51,148 nt of DNA from Minisyncoccota bacterium (GCA_017991375.1 JAGOQP010000001.1:1-51148); one strand, 5' to 3'; positions 10,726-43,114 are shown, counted from the stretch's first letter. Translations and numbers: made by a program. Notes: generated by a model from the sequence alone, not told the origin.

Positions 10726-11829
10726 TCACTTCAGTGTTTCTATGATGGCGATTTCAAAAGGGACTAATGGGAAAGGATTGTAGCGCATCTGAGTATAGGC
10801 CTCAATCAATGCTTTAATAAGGGCAATAAGATAGTCAGAATTAACTTTTTCGGCGTGTTGTTTAATGTGCGTCAACTGGCTGTGCGCGATTTCTTGGGAA
10901 AAGAGTGTTTCAAGAGTAGGGTTGAGGGAAAGCGAGAGGGTTCGCCTCAGATATTCAGTTACATCCTTGTTAAACTGAAACAAATTATATCCATCATTGC
11001 TAATCGTATGCAAAAAAAGTAACGCTTTATTTAAATCTTTTTGGATAAGTGCGTCAGCCATGGTCACGGTTTTTGCAAAGTCAACCTTTCCCAGTACCGA
11101 TTCCACGTGCTCAACTGAGACATTTTTTTGTTTCATTGAGGCGATTTGATCCAGAAGCGATTCGGCGTCTCGCACGCTTCCATCTGCCAGATGAGCAAGA
11201 AGCTCAAGCGCGTCACGGGTATAGTTCAATTGTTCCTGGCGCGCAATACGTTCAAGTTTATTGGCAATCTCCTCGAGTGTTAATTTGCGAAAGTGAAAAC
11301 GCTGAGTGCGCGACACGATAGTCGACGGGACTTTTTCATATTCGGTAGTGGCAAGTATAAATATGGCGTGTGCGGGGGGTTCCTCTAATGTCTTAAGGAG
11401 TGCGTTGAATGCGGGCGTGGTGAGCATGTGCACTTCGTCTATAATAAATACTTTTTTTGCGCACACGGAAGGGAGTGTGCGAATATGCTCCCTTAAATCT
11501 CTTATTTCATCAATGCCGCGATTTGATGCCGCGTCTATTTCCACCACATCAAGCGCGTGACCCGTATCTATCTGAGCGCATGTTGAACAACCGTTGCATG
11601 GCTCTCCCTCTTTTTTAAACGTCTCATCCTCGGCTCGTTTTTGGCAATTGATTGTTTTTGCAAGCAAGCGAGCAATAGTTGTTTTTCCAGTTCCCCGCGG
11701 GCCATAAAAAAGGTATGCGTGCGCAAACGCGTGTTCTCGTGCCGCATTTTTGAGAATAGCAACGATCGTCTCTTGGCCGACGATGTCAGAAAGTTTTTTT
11801 GGTCTGTATTTACGGTAGAGGGCAAGCAT
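10726..11829 (-). CDS. dnaX: DNA polymerase III subunit gamma/tau (short form)
   Basis: Walker A GPRGTGKTT, Zn module CNGCSTC, Walker B IIDEVHML, sensor SRTQRF. 367 aa. Confidence 0.92.
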   Translation of the reverse strand: MLALYRKYRPKKLSDIVGQETIVAILKNAAREHAFAHAYLFYGPRGTGKTTIARLLAKTINCQKRAEDETFKKEGEPCNGCSTCAQIDTGHALDVVEIDAASNRGIDEIRDLREHIRTLPSVCAKKVFIIDEVHMLTTPAFNALLKTLEEPPAHAIFILATTEYEKVPSTIVSRTQRFHFRKLTLEEIANKLERIARQEQLNYTRDALELLAHLADGSVRDAESLLDQIASMKQKNVSVEHVESVLGKVDFAKTVTMADALIQKDLNKALLFLHTISNDGYNLFQFNKDVTEYLRRTLSLSLNPTLETLFSQEIAHSQLTHIKQHAEKVNSDYLIALIKALIEAYTQMRYNPFPLVPFEIAIIETLK

Positions 11830-11967
11830 ACATAGTGATTAGTGGTTAGTGGGAGACAAGAGAGAACAAAGAAGAAAAACAGGTTCCAAAGTAACTCATA
11901 AGCTATGAGCTATATACTACGTGCCATCATCACTCTATATTATAAACGATTTAGATACAACTAGTAC

Positions 11968-12305
11968 AAAAAACTCCGACCATGTCGGAGTGTTGTGAAC
12001 AAAAAGACTGGGTCGGAGCGGTCGGTAATAGGAGGGCAAGAATGGCTATCCCTTTCTCTTTTCTGAGTAAGAGGAGATTTTGGGCGGAGCCGACGCTTTG
12101 CGTCTATCACGCCCCGCTCTCTACTCATCGGTGGCTGAAGGCCTTGCTGCCCCCACTTTTTCTTTTGGGGCGCGATTCCCAAAACGAGAAAGAAAGAGTC
12201 GCCCAGCGATTAAGCGATCGAGTGCGAAGTCCGTTCCAACCCAGTCAAATAACCATCTCTTATTTTATAGCCATTTGACTGAGTAGAACGGGAAACTAAT
12301 GTTCT
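11968..12305 (-). ncRNA. GC-rich structured RNA of unknown class (unit 1 of a tandem pair)
   Basis: Promoter TTGATA (12340-12335), 17 nt, TAAAAT (12317-12312). Terminator CTCCGAC-catg-GTCGGAG plus T6 (11990-11968). Long 5' hairpin at 12231-12291. No credible ORF. Confidence 0.55.
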
Positions 12306-12387
12306 GGTAAGATTTTACACTTGTGGTATTTGTTTATCAAGATGTGTGAGTATGGCAGATTATAAACGATTTAGATACAACTAGTAC

Positions 12388-12890
12388 AAAAAACGCCCGT
12401 CGGATGACGAGCGACCTCCAAAATGGAGGATTTGTGGGAAGGAGCGAAAGGGAAGGAGCGAAGGACTGGGGCGTGGACGGCGGGATGAGTGCTACCTTTT
12501 GCGTTGAGTGAGTGGTGACCTGAGTCACCGCAACACTTGCCAGTCCCAAGGTCTCCATTGGCAGAGGCCTTGAAAGGAGGTGACCGACTGACAGGCATCT
12601 CTCCCTGCCACAAGAATCTCAAGGATTCCCAGCCGAGATTTTTGACTCGGCTCTCGATCCTCATTTTGACTCTCGTGCGGCCCTTGAGGGAGACATCAAT
12701 CTCCCCACGGGGACTTTTGCCCCTCTCGCTGCTTTCTTCTCAAAGAGTCACCCTAGGCGTCCCCAGGGGAAGGCAAGAAAGTGAGAAGAAAACTGCAGCA
12801 GCCGGCTTCACATCCGTCCACGCCCAGTCAAATAGTCGCTTTTTACATAGTAGCTATTTGACTGGGCGTGGATCCCTTTTATACTGTTCT
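12388..12890 (-). ncRNA. GC-rich structured RNA of unknown class (unit 2 of a tandem pair)
   Basis: Consensus promoter TTGACA (12924-12919), 16 nt, TATAAT (12902-12897). Terminator is an 8-bp stem plus T6 (12413-12388). Perfect 19-bp 5' hairpin (12817-12835 / 12854-12872). No credible ORF. Confidence 0.55.
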
Positions 12891-13046
12891 GGTCTCATTA
12901 TACTCCTTTTATTTTATTTGTCAAGAGACGCAGATATATCGGGTAATATCAATATTCACATGGAAATGTATGTTATTATCTAGCGCGCAACGTTGGGTGG
13001 TATCGATTCGGTTGGATTTTGGAACATTTTTTGGTATTCTAAGGAT

Positions 13047-37966: not shown

Positions 37967-37994
37967 GGAAGGGTCGCATAGTGGTCTAGTGCGC
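37967..37994 (+). pseudogene. 28-nt duplicate of the tRNA-Ser 5' end (acceptor 5' strand plus D arm) without a 3' half
   Basis: GGAAGGGTCGCATAGTGGTCTAGTGCGC is identical to 38117-38144, exactly 150 nt upstream. The following sequence has no anticodon or T arm. Confidence 0.7.
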
Positions 37995-38116
37995 GAAGAT
38001 TGTTGCAGATTTGTCTCTGGTAAGCCAGAGCAACAAATCAAAATCCTGCTCAGAGCGGAAGGGTGTCCCTCGGCCCTGCTTCGGGGTAAACAAGAGTAAT
38101 TTTGTGTTATTATTTA

Positions 38117-38203
38117 GGAAGGGTCGCATAGTGGTCTAGTGCGCTCGCTTGGAAAGCGGGTGTGCCTTAACCGGCACCGAGAGTTCAAATCTCTCCCCTT
38201 CCG
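38117..38203 (+). tRNA. tRNA-Ser (anticodon GGA)
   Basis: Acceptor GGAAGGG/CCCTTCC, anticodon stem CTCGC/GCGGG with loop TTGGAAA, long variable arm GTGCC-ttaacc-GGCAC, T arm GAGAG-TTCAAAT-CTCTC. 87 nt; CCA is not encoded. Confidence 0.9.
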
Positions 38204-39199: not shown

Positions 39200-41545
39200 A
39201 TGGGTATATTTAAATTGAGTATATCTTTGATTTTTTCTTGTGTTTTATTTTTTGGTCTTAGTAGCGATATTTTTGCTGCGGTTAAATATGTCAACGGTAA
39301 CGCGTCGACATATACATCAATCAATTATCCAACTCCTAGTTCTGTATGGGGGGTTGGTAATGATACCACTGGAGACGGATCTATTAATGCTCCATGGGCA
39401 ACCATAGAGAAAGCTCTTGAAAGCTCTATGCTAACCAGAGGCGATACATTATATGTTGCCTCAAGTACTTACACAGATACTACTCCCGATCAAATAGCTG
39501 TAGCCTTTGGGGTTGGTAGCGGTAATACCTATATTATTGGAGATGGCAATCCTGTTTTTAATATGTATTCAAATCCAAGTCAGACATGGAACTTCACTTT
39601 GCTTACGAATGTTGATGGCCTTGTTTGGGATAATATAGATATCACAAACAACTCCTCCGTCACAGAATATACTTTTAGGATACCATCTGCTGGGACCTTT
39701 ATATTTAAAAATTCGTCAATGAATCTTGGTAATCCTGGTACGAACTACGCGCTTTTTTACTTAGTGGGCACTTCTAACACTATTGTTAATGTGCAGTCAA
39801 GCTTTCTTGGTGGTTGCCGTGGGAGCTGTTTTTTTGCCGATAACACAGGAACTAGTTCAATAACTTTATCATCAAGTGTTATAAAAGATACCGACAAACT
39901 TATTCAGTATAACGATCCAATTAGCACATATATCTTTAATAACACATTTGAAGATTTCAGTCCGGTAGCTCTTTATTTTAACTATTCTAGTGCTGTTACA
40001 AGTACTACTGCCCAAGTTGCCAACAATATATTCATTATCGATCCTGATGATATGAAGCCGATCTTGAGAGTGTCCAACGCGATGGAAACATATTTTGCAA
40101 ACCACTTATCTGATTGGATTTTTACTAACAATATTGTTACGCCTGATGCCGATAGTGAATTGATTGACATGAATTATTCCGATGTTAACGAAATAATTTA
40201 TGGTGATCAAGGAAATGCGGGGGAGGGTGACTTGTTTTATTTCAAAAACGAAAAAAATTGGCTTATTAAAATAGACTTTGTCGATCCCACAAATAAAAAC
40301 TATGCCATTGTTGATTGCGCTTCTACTTTTGCATGTGGTCGTGGGGACAGTAGTTATCTTCCTCTGGTGGACATACTTGGTAACTCGTGGTCCGGAAACC
40401 ATATCGGAGCTTTTCCTAACCCTACGACGACGCTGAGAGCGCTTTCTTTGAATGCATCATCAACGGCATTTATTGGCGATTCTATTCTGTACGGCAAGTG
40501 GGGTGGGACGTCTTGTCCTTGTAGTCCGAGCGTAAGTGGGGATAAGGGGGTATGGTGTTGGTTCGATTACTATGACGGGGGGTGTAATTCTGGCTTAACT
40601 GTTTACGCACAAACCGACGCGGCTGATTTATTTGATGCGATGCCAAGTCAGAGAATACAAGCTATTTATTGGTGGGCCGATGCTATTATTCTCACTCACA
40701 AACCTGATACTGTCTTTATGGCAGGGGGATTAAATAATTTTGACGAATATGACGATACAACTCGACCAGGCGATTCAACTTTGGCTCAAATTGCTTCGGT
40801 CGCTGAGTATGTTATGAAGAAGGCCGAATATTGGGGGGCAACTCCAATATGGTTGGGTATTGGGGCAACTGCTGAAAATATCATGGATGAAGATGCTGGA
40901 ACGTATAATACGAGCGTAAAATCAATATGTAGCGCCAACGGATGGACTGCTTATGAAACCCTTGCTGCTATGCAATCCGCGACCTCAAGTTGGGCAGCTT
41001 ATTTTTATGACGATCTTGATCTAGGAGATGTTCATCCAAACGTTAATGGGCATGCATTAATGGCTAACATGATAACCACTCCCACTATTACATTGCTTTC
41101 TTCTGCTTCTGATGGGACTATTTCTTGGATGACCAGCGAAGAATCTTCATCATTGGTTGACTGGGGTAGTACCTTGTCCTACGAGAATGGAACACTAGAA
41201 CATAATACGTCTACCTTTGTTACTGACCATTCAGTTACTATTCCTGTGAACGCATATCCTTGCTCGACTATTTATTTCCGCGCTAGATCGCGTGACGCGA
41301 TAGGAAACGAAGGATCTATGCTGGGTAATTTTATTTCTTCTGGGTGTTCTATTCCAACAACAGCAACTGTTACTATCCCTCCTCAATCGCGACCCAAGAG
41401 TTTCACTAGGTTACATATTCAATCAGATGATTATTCATTTGCCTCACCAGATGATCAAAGAACTATATTGATAAAAACTTTGATTCAGCTCCTTTACGAT
41501 GTGATTGAAAAAATGAGAAAGCTTAGTGAATTATTGAATAACTAA
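39200..41545 (+). CDS. large secreted multidomain protein (beta-helix-like, SGNH/GDSL-like, FN3-like)
   Basis: Signal peptide. N-terminal GDGSINAPWATIEKALES...GDTLYVASSTY is typical of right-handed beta-helix proteins. The middle section has FIGDSILYG ... DVHPNVNGHALMA (GDS and DxxH of SGNH hydrolases). The C-terminal segment TISWMTSEESSSLVDWG...IYFRARSRDAIGNEG is FN3-like. Confidence 0.7.
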   Translation: MGIFKLSISLIFSCVLFFGLSSDIFAAVKYVNGNASTYTSINYPTPSSVWGVGNDTTGDGSINAPWATIEKALESSMLTRGDTLYVASSTYTDTTPDQIAVAFGVGSGNTYIIGDGNPVFNMYSNPSQTWNFTLLTNVDGLVWDNIDITNNSSVTEYTFRIPSAGTFIFKNSSMNLGNPGTNYALFYLVGTSNTIVNVQSSFLGGCRGSCFFADNTGTSSITLSSSVIKDTDKLIQYNDPISTYIFNNTFEDFSPVALYFNYSSAVTSTTAQVANNIFIIDPDDMKPILRVSNAMETYFANHLSDWIFTNNIVTPDADSELIDMNYSDVNEIIYGDQGNAGEGDLFYFKNEKNWLIKIDFVDPTNKNYAIVDCASTFACGRGDSSYLPLVDILGNSWSGNHIGAFPNPTTTLRALSLNASSTAFIGDSILYGKWGGTSCPCSPSVSGDKGVWCWFDYYDGGCNSGLTVYAQTDAADLFDAMPSQRIQAIYWWADAIILTHKPDTVFMAGGLNNFDEYDDTTRPGDSTLAQIASVAEYVMKKAEYWGATPIWLGIGATAENIMDEDAGTYNTSVKSICSANGWTAYETLAAMQSATSSWAAYFYDDLDLGDVHPNVNGHALMANMITTPTITLLSSASDGTISWMTSEESSSLVDWGSTLSYENGTLEHNTSTFVTDHSVTIPVNAYPCSTIYFRARSRDAIGNEGSMLGNFISSGCSIPTTATVTIPPQSRPKSFTRLHIQSDDYSFASPDDQRTILIKTLIQLLYDVIEKMRKLSELLNN

Positions 41546-42548: not shown

Positions 42549-42587
42549 CTCTTGACTTTCTCTTTTTGTGCGTGTTACGATATGGTT

Positions 42588-43114
42588 AGTAACTTGTCAA
42601 TATCGAGTTCGCATCGAGCATGGCTTGGGTGCGAGGTGACCCGTGGCTTCTTTGGAAAAGAGCGCCTTTCGTTTCCGATTGGTAAGGGATGCTCTGCTCA
42701 AGGCGAGCAGACGAGGGGTGCGCGATCATCTCTGGGGAAGGTTGTGGCAAGCTCATAGACGCCACGCTTGAGGGGGATGATCAATAGAGTCGACAAAAGG
42801 TGAGGAGTGGCCAACGAGACAGCCCTGAGTTGCCGATGAGGTGGCGACTCTTGTTTGTCTGCGGAGGCGGCCGGCCATAACCCTCCATGTCGTTGTCGAC
42901 GCTATGCTCTTTCCAAAATAAGCGTCATCTCGCTCTTGTCACGGTGCGAACTCGATTCTCTCAAACGTATGGGGCCGGGCTGGCTAACGAAGCAGTCGCA
43001 ACACTCGGAGTAACAACGGTACGTCTAACACCTCCTTTCTTCGATGTCGTGTGTCTCTCCCAGCCCAGCCCCACCAAATGTCGCGGCGACCTCCTTGGTC
43101 GCCGCCTTTTTTTT
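42588..43114 (+). ncRNA. about 525-nt GC-rich structured RNA candidate of unknown class
   Basis: Promoter TTGACT (42552-42557), 18 nt, TACGAT. Perfect terminator GCGGCGACC-tcctt-GGTCGCCGC plus T8 (43083-43114). Only short, compositionally odd ORFs. Confidence 0.5.

Follow-up and report, generated by a model that had tools for sequence, protein, structure and literature searches.

Two candidate genes of a lineage-restricted structured RNA with a predicted alternative helix upstream of dnaX in a Patescibacteria bacterium

Two tandem units between dnaX and scpA

What is encoded in the GC-rich stretch that separates dnaX (10726-11829, minus strand) from scpA (from 13047, plus strand, followed by scpB and by a gene for D-Ala-D-Ala carboxypeptidase)? 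An initial annotation of the 51,148-nt stretch of DNA analysed here, which we call the window, had placed two tandem RNA genes in it, on the same strand as dnaX and directly upstream of that gene. The remainder of the window is ordinary chromosome carrying pgk, ftsW, murG, uvrABC, groEL and rmuC. Compared with the GTDB species set, its DnaX comes closest to MAGs of Patescibacteria/Paceibacterota, with identities that do not exceed 71%, indicating that the host is a Patescibacteria/CPR bacterium. Bacteria of this group have tiny genomes, and to our knowledge almost no non-coding RNAs have been described in them beyond the universal ones. The initial annotation had looked to Firmicutes, in which the SRP RNA gene sits upstream of dnaX. 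Given the host, this synteny does not apply, and a search for SRP RNA as a conserved housekeeping gene at the same locus found none in 18 related CPR dnaX loci.

Examination of the signals in the minus strand revealed, in agreement with the initial annotation, two adjacent units each provided with a predicted promoter, of sigma-70-like type, and a predicted terminator of its own. Unit 2 (12388-12890) would yield an RNA of ~503 nt with 56% GC and without a conserved ORF. Its promoter, TTGACA-16-TATAAT (12924-12897), matches the consensus at 12 of 12 positions, is the sole perfect consensus promoter of the 51-kb window and is unchanged in the sister strain L180. Unit 1 (11968-12305), which is missing in the sister strain, would yield an RNA of ~338 nt from a promoter matching at 10 of 12 positions, TTGATA-17-TAAAAT (12340-12312). 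Both predicted starts, A12890 and A12305, lie inside ACCAGAAC. The intrinsic terminator of unit 2 (12388-12413) consists of an 8-bp stem with six GC pairs (12413-12394) and U6, and that of unit 1 (11968-11991) of an 8-bp stem (11991-11973) and a U-run (T6). The region of the units holds five promoter-like and five terminator-like sites, as compared with 1.4 and 1.2 in shuffled sequences, and the GC content of the bodies is 50-57% as compared with 38-41% in the flanks and 44% in the whole window.

The units had also been described as paralogous. This applies to their ends, as homology extends from the -35 box through the 5' hairpin (~72% identity) and is found again at the terminator, with promoter, hairpin and terminator about 60-75% alike; it does not apply to the bodies, which are essentially unalignable. 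No third copy of a unit was found by blastn in the window or in any fetched locus.

The strand on which the units are read had been left in doubt by promoter-like elements on the plus strand. The element of unit 2, TTGACT-16-TATACT, is indeed present at 12858-12885, but a 1-nt deletion in L180 turns its -10 box from TATACT into TTACTG, and the counterpart in unit 1, with TAATGT as -10, scores under the threshold of the scan. Only in the minus-strand orientation are the terminators predicted to function. In the unit 1 hairpin, all five positions that depart from Watson-Crick pairing read as G.U in minus-strand RNA, whereas plus-strand RNA would have A-C mismatches there. Because terminators, promoters and the G.U-only imperfections of this hairpin point the same way, the minus strand is favoured and the question is less open than had been feared.

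Neither unit has a credible ORF, as noticed from the outset: the listed ORFs run through the terminators, their translations have no homologues, and indels of 1, 16 and 1 nt disrupt every one of them in L180. The two largest plus-strand ORFs had no homologue among 5.8 billion proteins, themselves included, and since they did not match even themselves they are not called by gene callers. Translations of the spurious ORFs, used as a handle for homologous DNA, gave no match. We therefore exclude coding, on the grounds that indels break the ORFs and that the translations lack homologues.

Comparison with known RNAs gave no assignment. Rfam 15 (4227 families) returned only the two tRNAs of the window at the gathering score and nothing for the units. 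When 1.4 kb around them was searched at E<=10, only chance miRNA-like hairpin matches appeared and no SRP, 6S, tmRNA or RNase P RNA, so this check, which had been proposed with the initial annotation, bore out that the class is not a known family. Small and large bacterial SRP RNAs gave no covariance-model match, the GNAR tetraloop of domain IV included; RNase P RNA (CR-I to CR-V, helix P4) had no match at E<=10, and neither had 6S RNA, the units being 338 and 503 nt long. For tmRNA, which has a tRNA-like domain and a tag reading frame, ARAGORN reported only two tRNAs in the window and Rfam no match. OLE, GOLLD, ROOL, raiA and HEARO RNAs were likewise without a match among the 4227 families. 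A type I toxin-antitoxin mRNA is contradicted by the lack of an ORF common to the units, by the indels that break the ORFs and by the lack of a conserved antisense promoter. A retron msr-msd or a guide RNA of IscB, TnpB or IS110 is contradicted by the neighbours, dnaX and scpA, and by the lack of a reverse transcriptase, nuclease or recombinase Pfam domain in the ORFs of at least 150 aa of the 51 kb. Judged from sequence, the units do have the properties of a generic free-standing structured non-coding RNA, namely a putative promoter and terminator, no ORF, conservation above neutral and substitutions that preserve pairs. A literature search found nothing on point.

Several resemblances were considered and rejected. 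Unit 2 contains UCACCUCCUUUC, the usual 3' end of 16S rRNA; for an anti-Shine-Dalgarno mechanism, however, this segment is only partly unpaired in the predicted ensemble, and an SD-like sequence is missing from 22 of the window's 33 genes. No convincing repeated motif of the CsrB kind was seen. Likeness to a CtsR box, dif/Xer, attC, parS, a DnaA box or oriT, judged by eye, fails in each case on polarity, spacing or a missing partner gene.

Two predicted helices with one strand in common

Each unit begins with a long 5' hairpin (H1), and this part of the initial annotation stands. In unit 2 it is a perfect 19-bp inverted repeat (12817-12835/12854-12872, minus strand; RNA 19-74) with an 18-nt A-rich loop and a predicted energy of -34.8 kcal/mol. 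In unit 1 the hairpin (12231-12291, minus strand; RNA 15-75) comprises 25 bp, of which five are G.U, and contains one bulge but no mismatches; its predicted energy is -34.3 kcal/mol, and its arms are 76% complementary at the DNA level. The inner stem of 9-11 bp, CAGUCAAAU/AUUUGACUG, is identical in both units with the same 33-bp spacing between half-sites, and the pattern CCCAGTCAAAT..ATTTGACTG has only two sites in the window, those of the two units, with none expected. Folding of the whole minus-strand RNAs gave minimum free energies (MFE) of -218.6 kcal/mol for unit 2 (z -7.6 relative to shuffles) and -124.6 kcal/mol for unit 1 (z -5.1). The plus strand folds less strongly than the minus strand, with z of -6.8 for unit 2 and -3.6 for unit 1, values that are still below shuffles.

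A feature absent from the initial annotation is that, in both units, the 3' arm of H1 is complementary to a second, distal stretch of the RNA, close to its 3' end. This distal strand closely repeats the sequence of the 5' arm. That of unit 2 (12464-12480, minus strand; RNA 411-427) can pair with 12814-12829, and that of unit 1 (12006-12021, minus strand; RNA 285-300) with 12231-12246 at 15 of 16 positions. The alternative helix (P1), built from the 3' arm and the distal near-copy of the 5' arm, would close the entire body. As an isolated helix P1 has 16 bp with one bulged C and -34.2 kcal/mol in unit 2, and -29.4 kcal/mol in unit 1 as compared with -34.3 for H1. Thus, in both units folding predicts two mutually exclusive helices of about equal strength in isolation that have one strand in common. 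In the full-length MFE, H1 beats P1 by 12-17 kcal/mol, so that P1 would need processing or a factor; when the 5' arm was held unpaired, P1 was predicted to form in both units. Towards the outside of H1, and in the corresponding portion of P1, most positions are different in the two units, yet complementarity is kept in each. The distal strand of unit 1 overlaps an alternative, longer terminator pairing, and that of unit 2 lies ~50 nt upstream of the terminator stem without overlap. Between P1 and the terminator of unit 2 lies a C/U-rich tandem of a 14-nt repeat, CUUCGCUCCUUCCC x2 (12436-12467, minus strand), of which L180 has one copy fewer owing to the 16-nt deletion.

Comparison of unit 2 with its counterpart in L180 showed that three of the seven substitutions, one in the 5' arm (G24A), one in the 3' arm (C69U) and one in the distal strand (G419A), fall on the same pair of H1 and P1 and keep Watson-Crick pairing in both: pair 24-69 changes from G-C to A-U in H1, and pair 69-419 from C-G to U-A in P1. 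As for the other four, A55G adds an apical pair to H1 in L180, U328C turns a U.G into a C-G pair, A332G occupies a loop position, and G213A costs one predicted G.U pair. These substitutions lend support to the pairing because it is improbable that three of seven should land on a single three-way pairing, the chance being roughly 1e-5 by a hand estimate. Shuffle controls on pair counts reached the observed values in 351 of 500 and 178 of 500 trials, with no power at n=3 distinct unit 2 sequences; the known variants are these three and a single unit 1 sequence. In a further assembly, L184, the 5' arm change is found without the other two and with a second change, giving an A-C mismatch in H1; this assembly may be an intermediate or a mixed one. 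Concerted change in short repeats is possible at the DNA level too, by template switching in quasi-palindromes.

Divergence, distribution and the 36-nt tail

To what extent is the locus conserved? A comparison of the window with L180 shows differences at 3-6% of the sites of the five flanking genes and at 133 of 1243 of their third codon positions (10.7%), whereas unit 2 carries its seven substitutions in 486 aligned sites (1.4%), a value like that of first and second codon positions (binomial P 6e-16 relative to third positions and 1e-4 relative to all coding sites). The 156-nt spacer from scpA to the start of unit 2 is equally conserved, with 3 of 156 sites differing, and a recent recombination tract could therefore, in principle, explain the low divergence. 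Divergence resumes 73 nt into scpA, and on the other side the sequence is altogether replaced.

A synteny search with DnaX against the GTDB species set and protein-indexed assemblies found unit 2 at the same place in the sister strain (L180/L181), whose DnaX has 4 amino acid differences in 367; unit 1 is missing there, and the unit 2 terminator is directly followed by the dnaX promoter. Relatives whose DnaX is 69-77% identical have neither unit. In the closest relative found (L107, 77%), scpA and dnaX are divergent with 262 bp between them and no units; L188 and L190 (~70%) have a spacer of 150-185 bp without units, L186 (~70%) has an extra protein gene between scpA and dnaX and no units, and L001 (a 71% GTDB DnaX match) has a short AT-rich spacer, again without units. 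Inspection of the dnaX-upstream regions of related genomes, a check suggested together with the initial annotation, thus located unit 2 in the sister strain only, with more distant relatives devoid of units. Identical or near-identical loci were obtained from the runs ERR3438381/2, SRR11088371, ERR7015365, ERR14964774, SRR11235434, DRR438493 and DRR438508. Besides L180/L181, assemblies of four further runs have a unit 2 identical to that of the window and end 30 nt into the tail described below. The Logan assemblies break 30 nt (k-1) into tail copy A, as an assembler with k=31 does at repeats.

Wider scans were negative. A metagenome scan for the CCCAGTCAAAT..ATTTGACTG hairpin gave 71 matches, all of which lacked the flanking ACGGA, a body rich in GC and a distal partner; with up to one mismatch per arm the hairpin was absent from 665 kb of CPR and other dnaX neighbourhoods, where shuffled 9-mers gave a mean of 0.8. 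Scans of viral contigs returned 22 chance hairpins and no homologue of a unit, and blastn against phage and plasmid collections gave no match to the units. In the data searched, both units appear restricted to one species. Since they are absent from the relatives and from the scanned collections, they thus seem to be recent acquisitions of one species-level lineage.

The initial annotation had described an identical 36-bp tail following both terminators. The exact repeat is there (11939-11974 equals 12359-12394, with none expected by chance), but rather than a part of the RNA it appears to be a duplicated piece of the ancestral dnaX promoter, comprising the -35 box and spacer. Copy B (11932-11974 with the dnaX promoter, minus strand) contains a putative -35 box TTGTAT (11960-11955), a 17-nt spacer and a putative -10 box TAGAGT (11937-11932), and the repeat stops at 11939, within the spacer. 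Copy A (12359-12394, minus strand) is a duplicate of this promoter-region piece with no -10 box at that place. The 3' two thirds of the tail (GTTGTAT...TATAAT) and the bases that follow align to the dnaX upstream regions of L107 and L180, which have the same promoter-like layout, TTGTAT-17-TA(A/G)AGT. Taken together, unit 1 and one tail amount to an insertion of 420 bp between direct repeats of 36 bp. The two tails are identical throughout (100%), while the promoters, hairpins and terminators of the units are about 60-75% alike and the bodies unalignable, and so a simple old tandem duplication fails to explain the arrangement. A putative recombinational integration at the tail, or else a recent conversion, does explain the identity of the tails, and we prefer neither of the two.

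Weighing the readings

We consider it probable that the two units encode structured non-coding RNAs and that these form a new family restricted to one lineage. The fuller account, in which minus-strand transcription of each gene starts at its own promoter and stops at its own terminator, and the RNAs refold between H1 and P1, is the best overall explanation, and we lean towards it. Could the repeats act in DNA instead, as the borders of an invertible body segment or as small mobile cassettes for which the 36-bp tail is the site of recombinational integration? The 16-bp inverted repeats do flank 333 bp in unit 2 (12481-12813) and 209 bp in unit 1 (12022-12230), recombination sites evolve in concert, and both the 420-bp insertion with its direct repeats, missing in the sister strain, and the lack of either unit in relatives with 69-77% DnaX identity would suit mobility. 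We nevertheless hold this reading to be unlikely. A search for Pfam domains in ORFs of at least 150 aa found no recombinase, transposase, reverse transcriptase, Cas, IscB or TnpB gene in 51 kb; six assemblies from different samples have, as assembled, the body in one orientation throughout, with no recombinase in the window; the window and the fetched loci hold no further copies, and the phage and plasmid collections no match. The departures from Watson-Crick pairing in the unit 1 hairpin are G.U throughout, which points to selection at the RNA level, and the tail is ancestral dnaX promoter sequence rather than sequence of an element. It is a little harder still to see the units as cis-acting leaders or insulators, which would tune read-through into dnaX from a very strong promoter, with termination governed by the alternative helices, or protect dnaX and scpA against transcription coming from one another. 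Their position directly upstream of dnaX on the same strand, the overlap of the unit 1 distal strand with the longer terminator pairing, and the A:B versus B:C layout of three strands, which is the logic of an attenuator, all speak for such a role. However, dnaX has its own predicted promoter past the terminators, homologous to that of relatives without units, the unit 2 distal strand stays clear of its terminator stem, bodies of 250-350 nt are unnecessary for attenuation, and a spacer of 150-260 bp suffices in relatives.

That the units are recently acquired DNA without function, with signals and folding that are incidental, has a similarly small chance of being right. It would fit the one-species distribution, the lack of homologues in the searches and the lack of an assignable function; it is opposed by the divergence of unit 2 (1.4% as against 10.7% at neighbouring third codon positions), by substitutions of which nearly all preserve or strengthen pairs or fall in a loop, by the perfect consensus promoter, and by three-strand complementarity kept in both paralogues despite different sequences. 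Two more readings are excluded more firmly than these three. A highly divergent housekeeping RNA (SRP, 6S, RNase P or tmRNA) is very improbable in spite of the strong promoter, the long structured RNAs and the position of the SRP RNA gene upstream of dnaX in Bacillota, given that no model matched at E<=10 over 1.4 kb, that ARAGORN found no tmRNA, that the 18 related CPR dnaX loci are without SRP RNA, and that close relatives lack the units, which is unexpected for a housekeeping RNA. Bacterial SRP RNA has roughly 100-270 nt and 6S RNA, a rod with a central bubble, roughly 180-200 nt, sizes that the 340 and 500 nt of the units exceed. Equally far-fetched are mRNAs of small proteins such as type I toxins, a reading suggested by the 5' hairpin with its long-range 5'-3' alternative pairing. 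This resembles hok-type mRNAs, in which a metastable 5' hairpin gives way to a 5'-3' fold-back. Against it, the units share no ORF and the ORFs run through the terminators, the 1- and 16-nt indels of the sister strain break them, they have no homologues, no short hydrophobic ORF with a ribosome-binding site is present, and the one promoter-like site on the plus strand, which the sister strain has lost, is directed away from the RNA.

Known systems resemble the units in part. Like OLE, GOLLD, ROOL and raiA RNAs, they are several hundred nucleotides long, ORF-less, richer in GC than their surroundings, strongly folded by prediction and free-standing; unlike these classes, which span many genera with strong covariation, the units are found in one species and match no Rfam family, and a three-strand device of the H1/P1 kind is not known from any of the four. 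With the sponge RNAs CsrB/CsrC and RsmY/RsmZ they have in common paired free-standing genes of unequal length, related promoters and ends, barely alignable bodies and Rho-independent terminators; the likeness is one of genetic layout only, as the units lack a GGA-like repeated loop motif and no CsrA-type partner is known. As in hok-type mRNAs, a strand of the 5' hairpin can instead pair near the 3' end and close the molecule, but the units have neither a toxin ORF nor an antisense RNA gene. Attenuators and riboswitch expression platforms likewise consist of three segments forming mutually exclusive A:B and B:C helices, whereas in the units B and C lie 210-340 nt apart around a large structured body, and C of unit 2 is outside the terminator. 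The SRP RNA gene of Bacillota is also upstream of dnaX on the same strand; the units differ from it in having no match to an SRP motif or model, and in belonging to a CPR bacterium with relatives that lack an RNA gene in the corresponding position.

How might such RNAs work? For the new RNA genes that we favour, we tentatively propose a refolding mechanism, which we would not yet back against its alternatives. H1 would form first, during transcription, and hold the 3' arm. In a later maturation or switch the 5' arm would be removed or displaced, with RNase III or a bound factor as candidate triggers; RNase III is a candidate because H1 is a near-perfect duplex of 19-25 bp, a length typical of RNase III substrates. 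Pairing of the 3' arm with the distal strand would then enclose the GC-rich body in a stable panhandle. This form would be trans-acting and would most likely bind protein or serve as a scaffold RNA. No gene for a partner protein was seen near the units, nor anything suggestive within 51 kb. More speculatively, and with little expectation that it is correct, the units may be protein-free RNA-gene cassettes, composed of promoter, 5' decoy hairpin, body and terminator, that spread by recombination at the promoter-proximal 36-bp site. Each would encode a three-strand 'pro-RNA' in which the 5' arm copies the 3' closing strand and serves as a decoy; loss or displacement of this arm, for example by RNase III, would give the closed, active form. 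In this picture the complementarity could permit strand-swapped multimers as well.

The RNA family would thus be new and its kind, the free-standing bacterial structured RNA gene, familiar; what would be unusual is the three-strand refolding device. The narrow distribution limits its reach, and the locus is for now a well-supported candidate rather than a discovery. For the organism, an acquired candidate RNA gene of 500 nt under the strongest promoter of its region, conserved like first and second codon positions, suggests that the species probably benefits from it. An alternative pairing that is kept in two paralogues of different sequence, and in which all three strands follow one substitution between strains, would offer a compact natural example of programmed RNA refolding.

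A third candidate orphan RNA gene

The plus-strand interval 42552-43113 of the window was recognized as a third candidate orphan RNA gene, in addition to units 1 and 2, the two candidate structured-RNA genes located between scpA and dnaX. The candidate carries a promoter-like element, TTGACT-18-TACGAT, at 42552-42581 (+) and a strong terminator at 43083-43105 (+), and its body of about 520 nt is GC-rich, ORF-poor and predicted to fold stably (MFE z = -5.0). Searches of Rfam gave no match for this interval, and comparison with units 1 and 2 revealed no sequence similarity. Exploring its sequence, we found the 11-mer CACCUCCUUUC, which is similar to the 3' end of 16S rRNA and is identical to the 11-mer of unit 2; within the window the exact 11-mer occurs in these two places only. 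In the candidate it is preceded by GUAACAACGGUAC, which also resembles the 16S 3' region. The candidate is kept in a sister strain (contig L191) with 15 mismatches in 919 nt, the surrounding genes being conserved to the same degree.

Upstream of the candidate, the window encodes a GDSL-lipase-like gene of 781 aa (39200-41545, +) that has no counterpart in L191, in which the NUDIX gene adjoins a 180-aa gene at this position. Furthermore, the first ~28 nt of tRNA-Ser(GGA) (GGAAGGGTCGCATAGTGGTCTAGTGCGC) recur some 150 nt upstream of this tRNA gene; the two copies lie at ~37967-37995 and ~38117-38145 (+), and a GC-rich stretch separates them. The duplicated start could stem from a second tRNA gene that was disrupted, or it could be the scar of an integration event.

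Hairpins in metagenomic contigs

An intergenic hairpin of the form TTCACCCAGTCAAAT ... ATTTGACTGGGT(G/A)AA, with variable inner parts, is common to five low-GC metagenomic contigs (L124:3916-3979, L133:589-637, L144:1078-1147, L169:2308-2359 and L171:2343-2398), and similar hairpins were detected between infC and rpmI (L110:443-486) and between tuf and rpsJ (L164:700-744). The metagenomic-contig hairpins have no match in Rfam. They share with the unit 1 and unit 2 hairpins an 11-bp inner stem, whereas all else differs, and they turned up solely because this stem was the scan query.

The leaders of dnaX and scpA

The dnaX 5' leader of the sister strain (L180:5930-5999) harbors two copies of a 27-nt tandem repeat, TATCGTTTCACATTAAAC(A/G)TTCCACTC, and bears no relation to its counterpart in the window. 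Since the dnaX genes of the window and L180, in contrast to their leaders, show 97% identity, this comparison marks the interval from the unit 2 terminator to dnaX as a recombination hot spot. A further element, UUUGGAAC(C/A)U(G/U)UUUU, occurs in the predicted 5' leader of dnaX and again in that of scpA, each time in the sense strand of the respective gene (11876-11890 and 13018-13032; the 15-nt inverted repeat I5 of the repeat analysis). This element may be a regulatory site common to the divergent dnaX and scpA.
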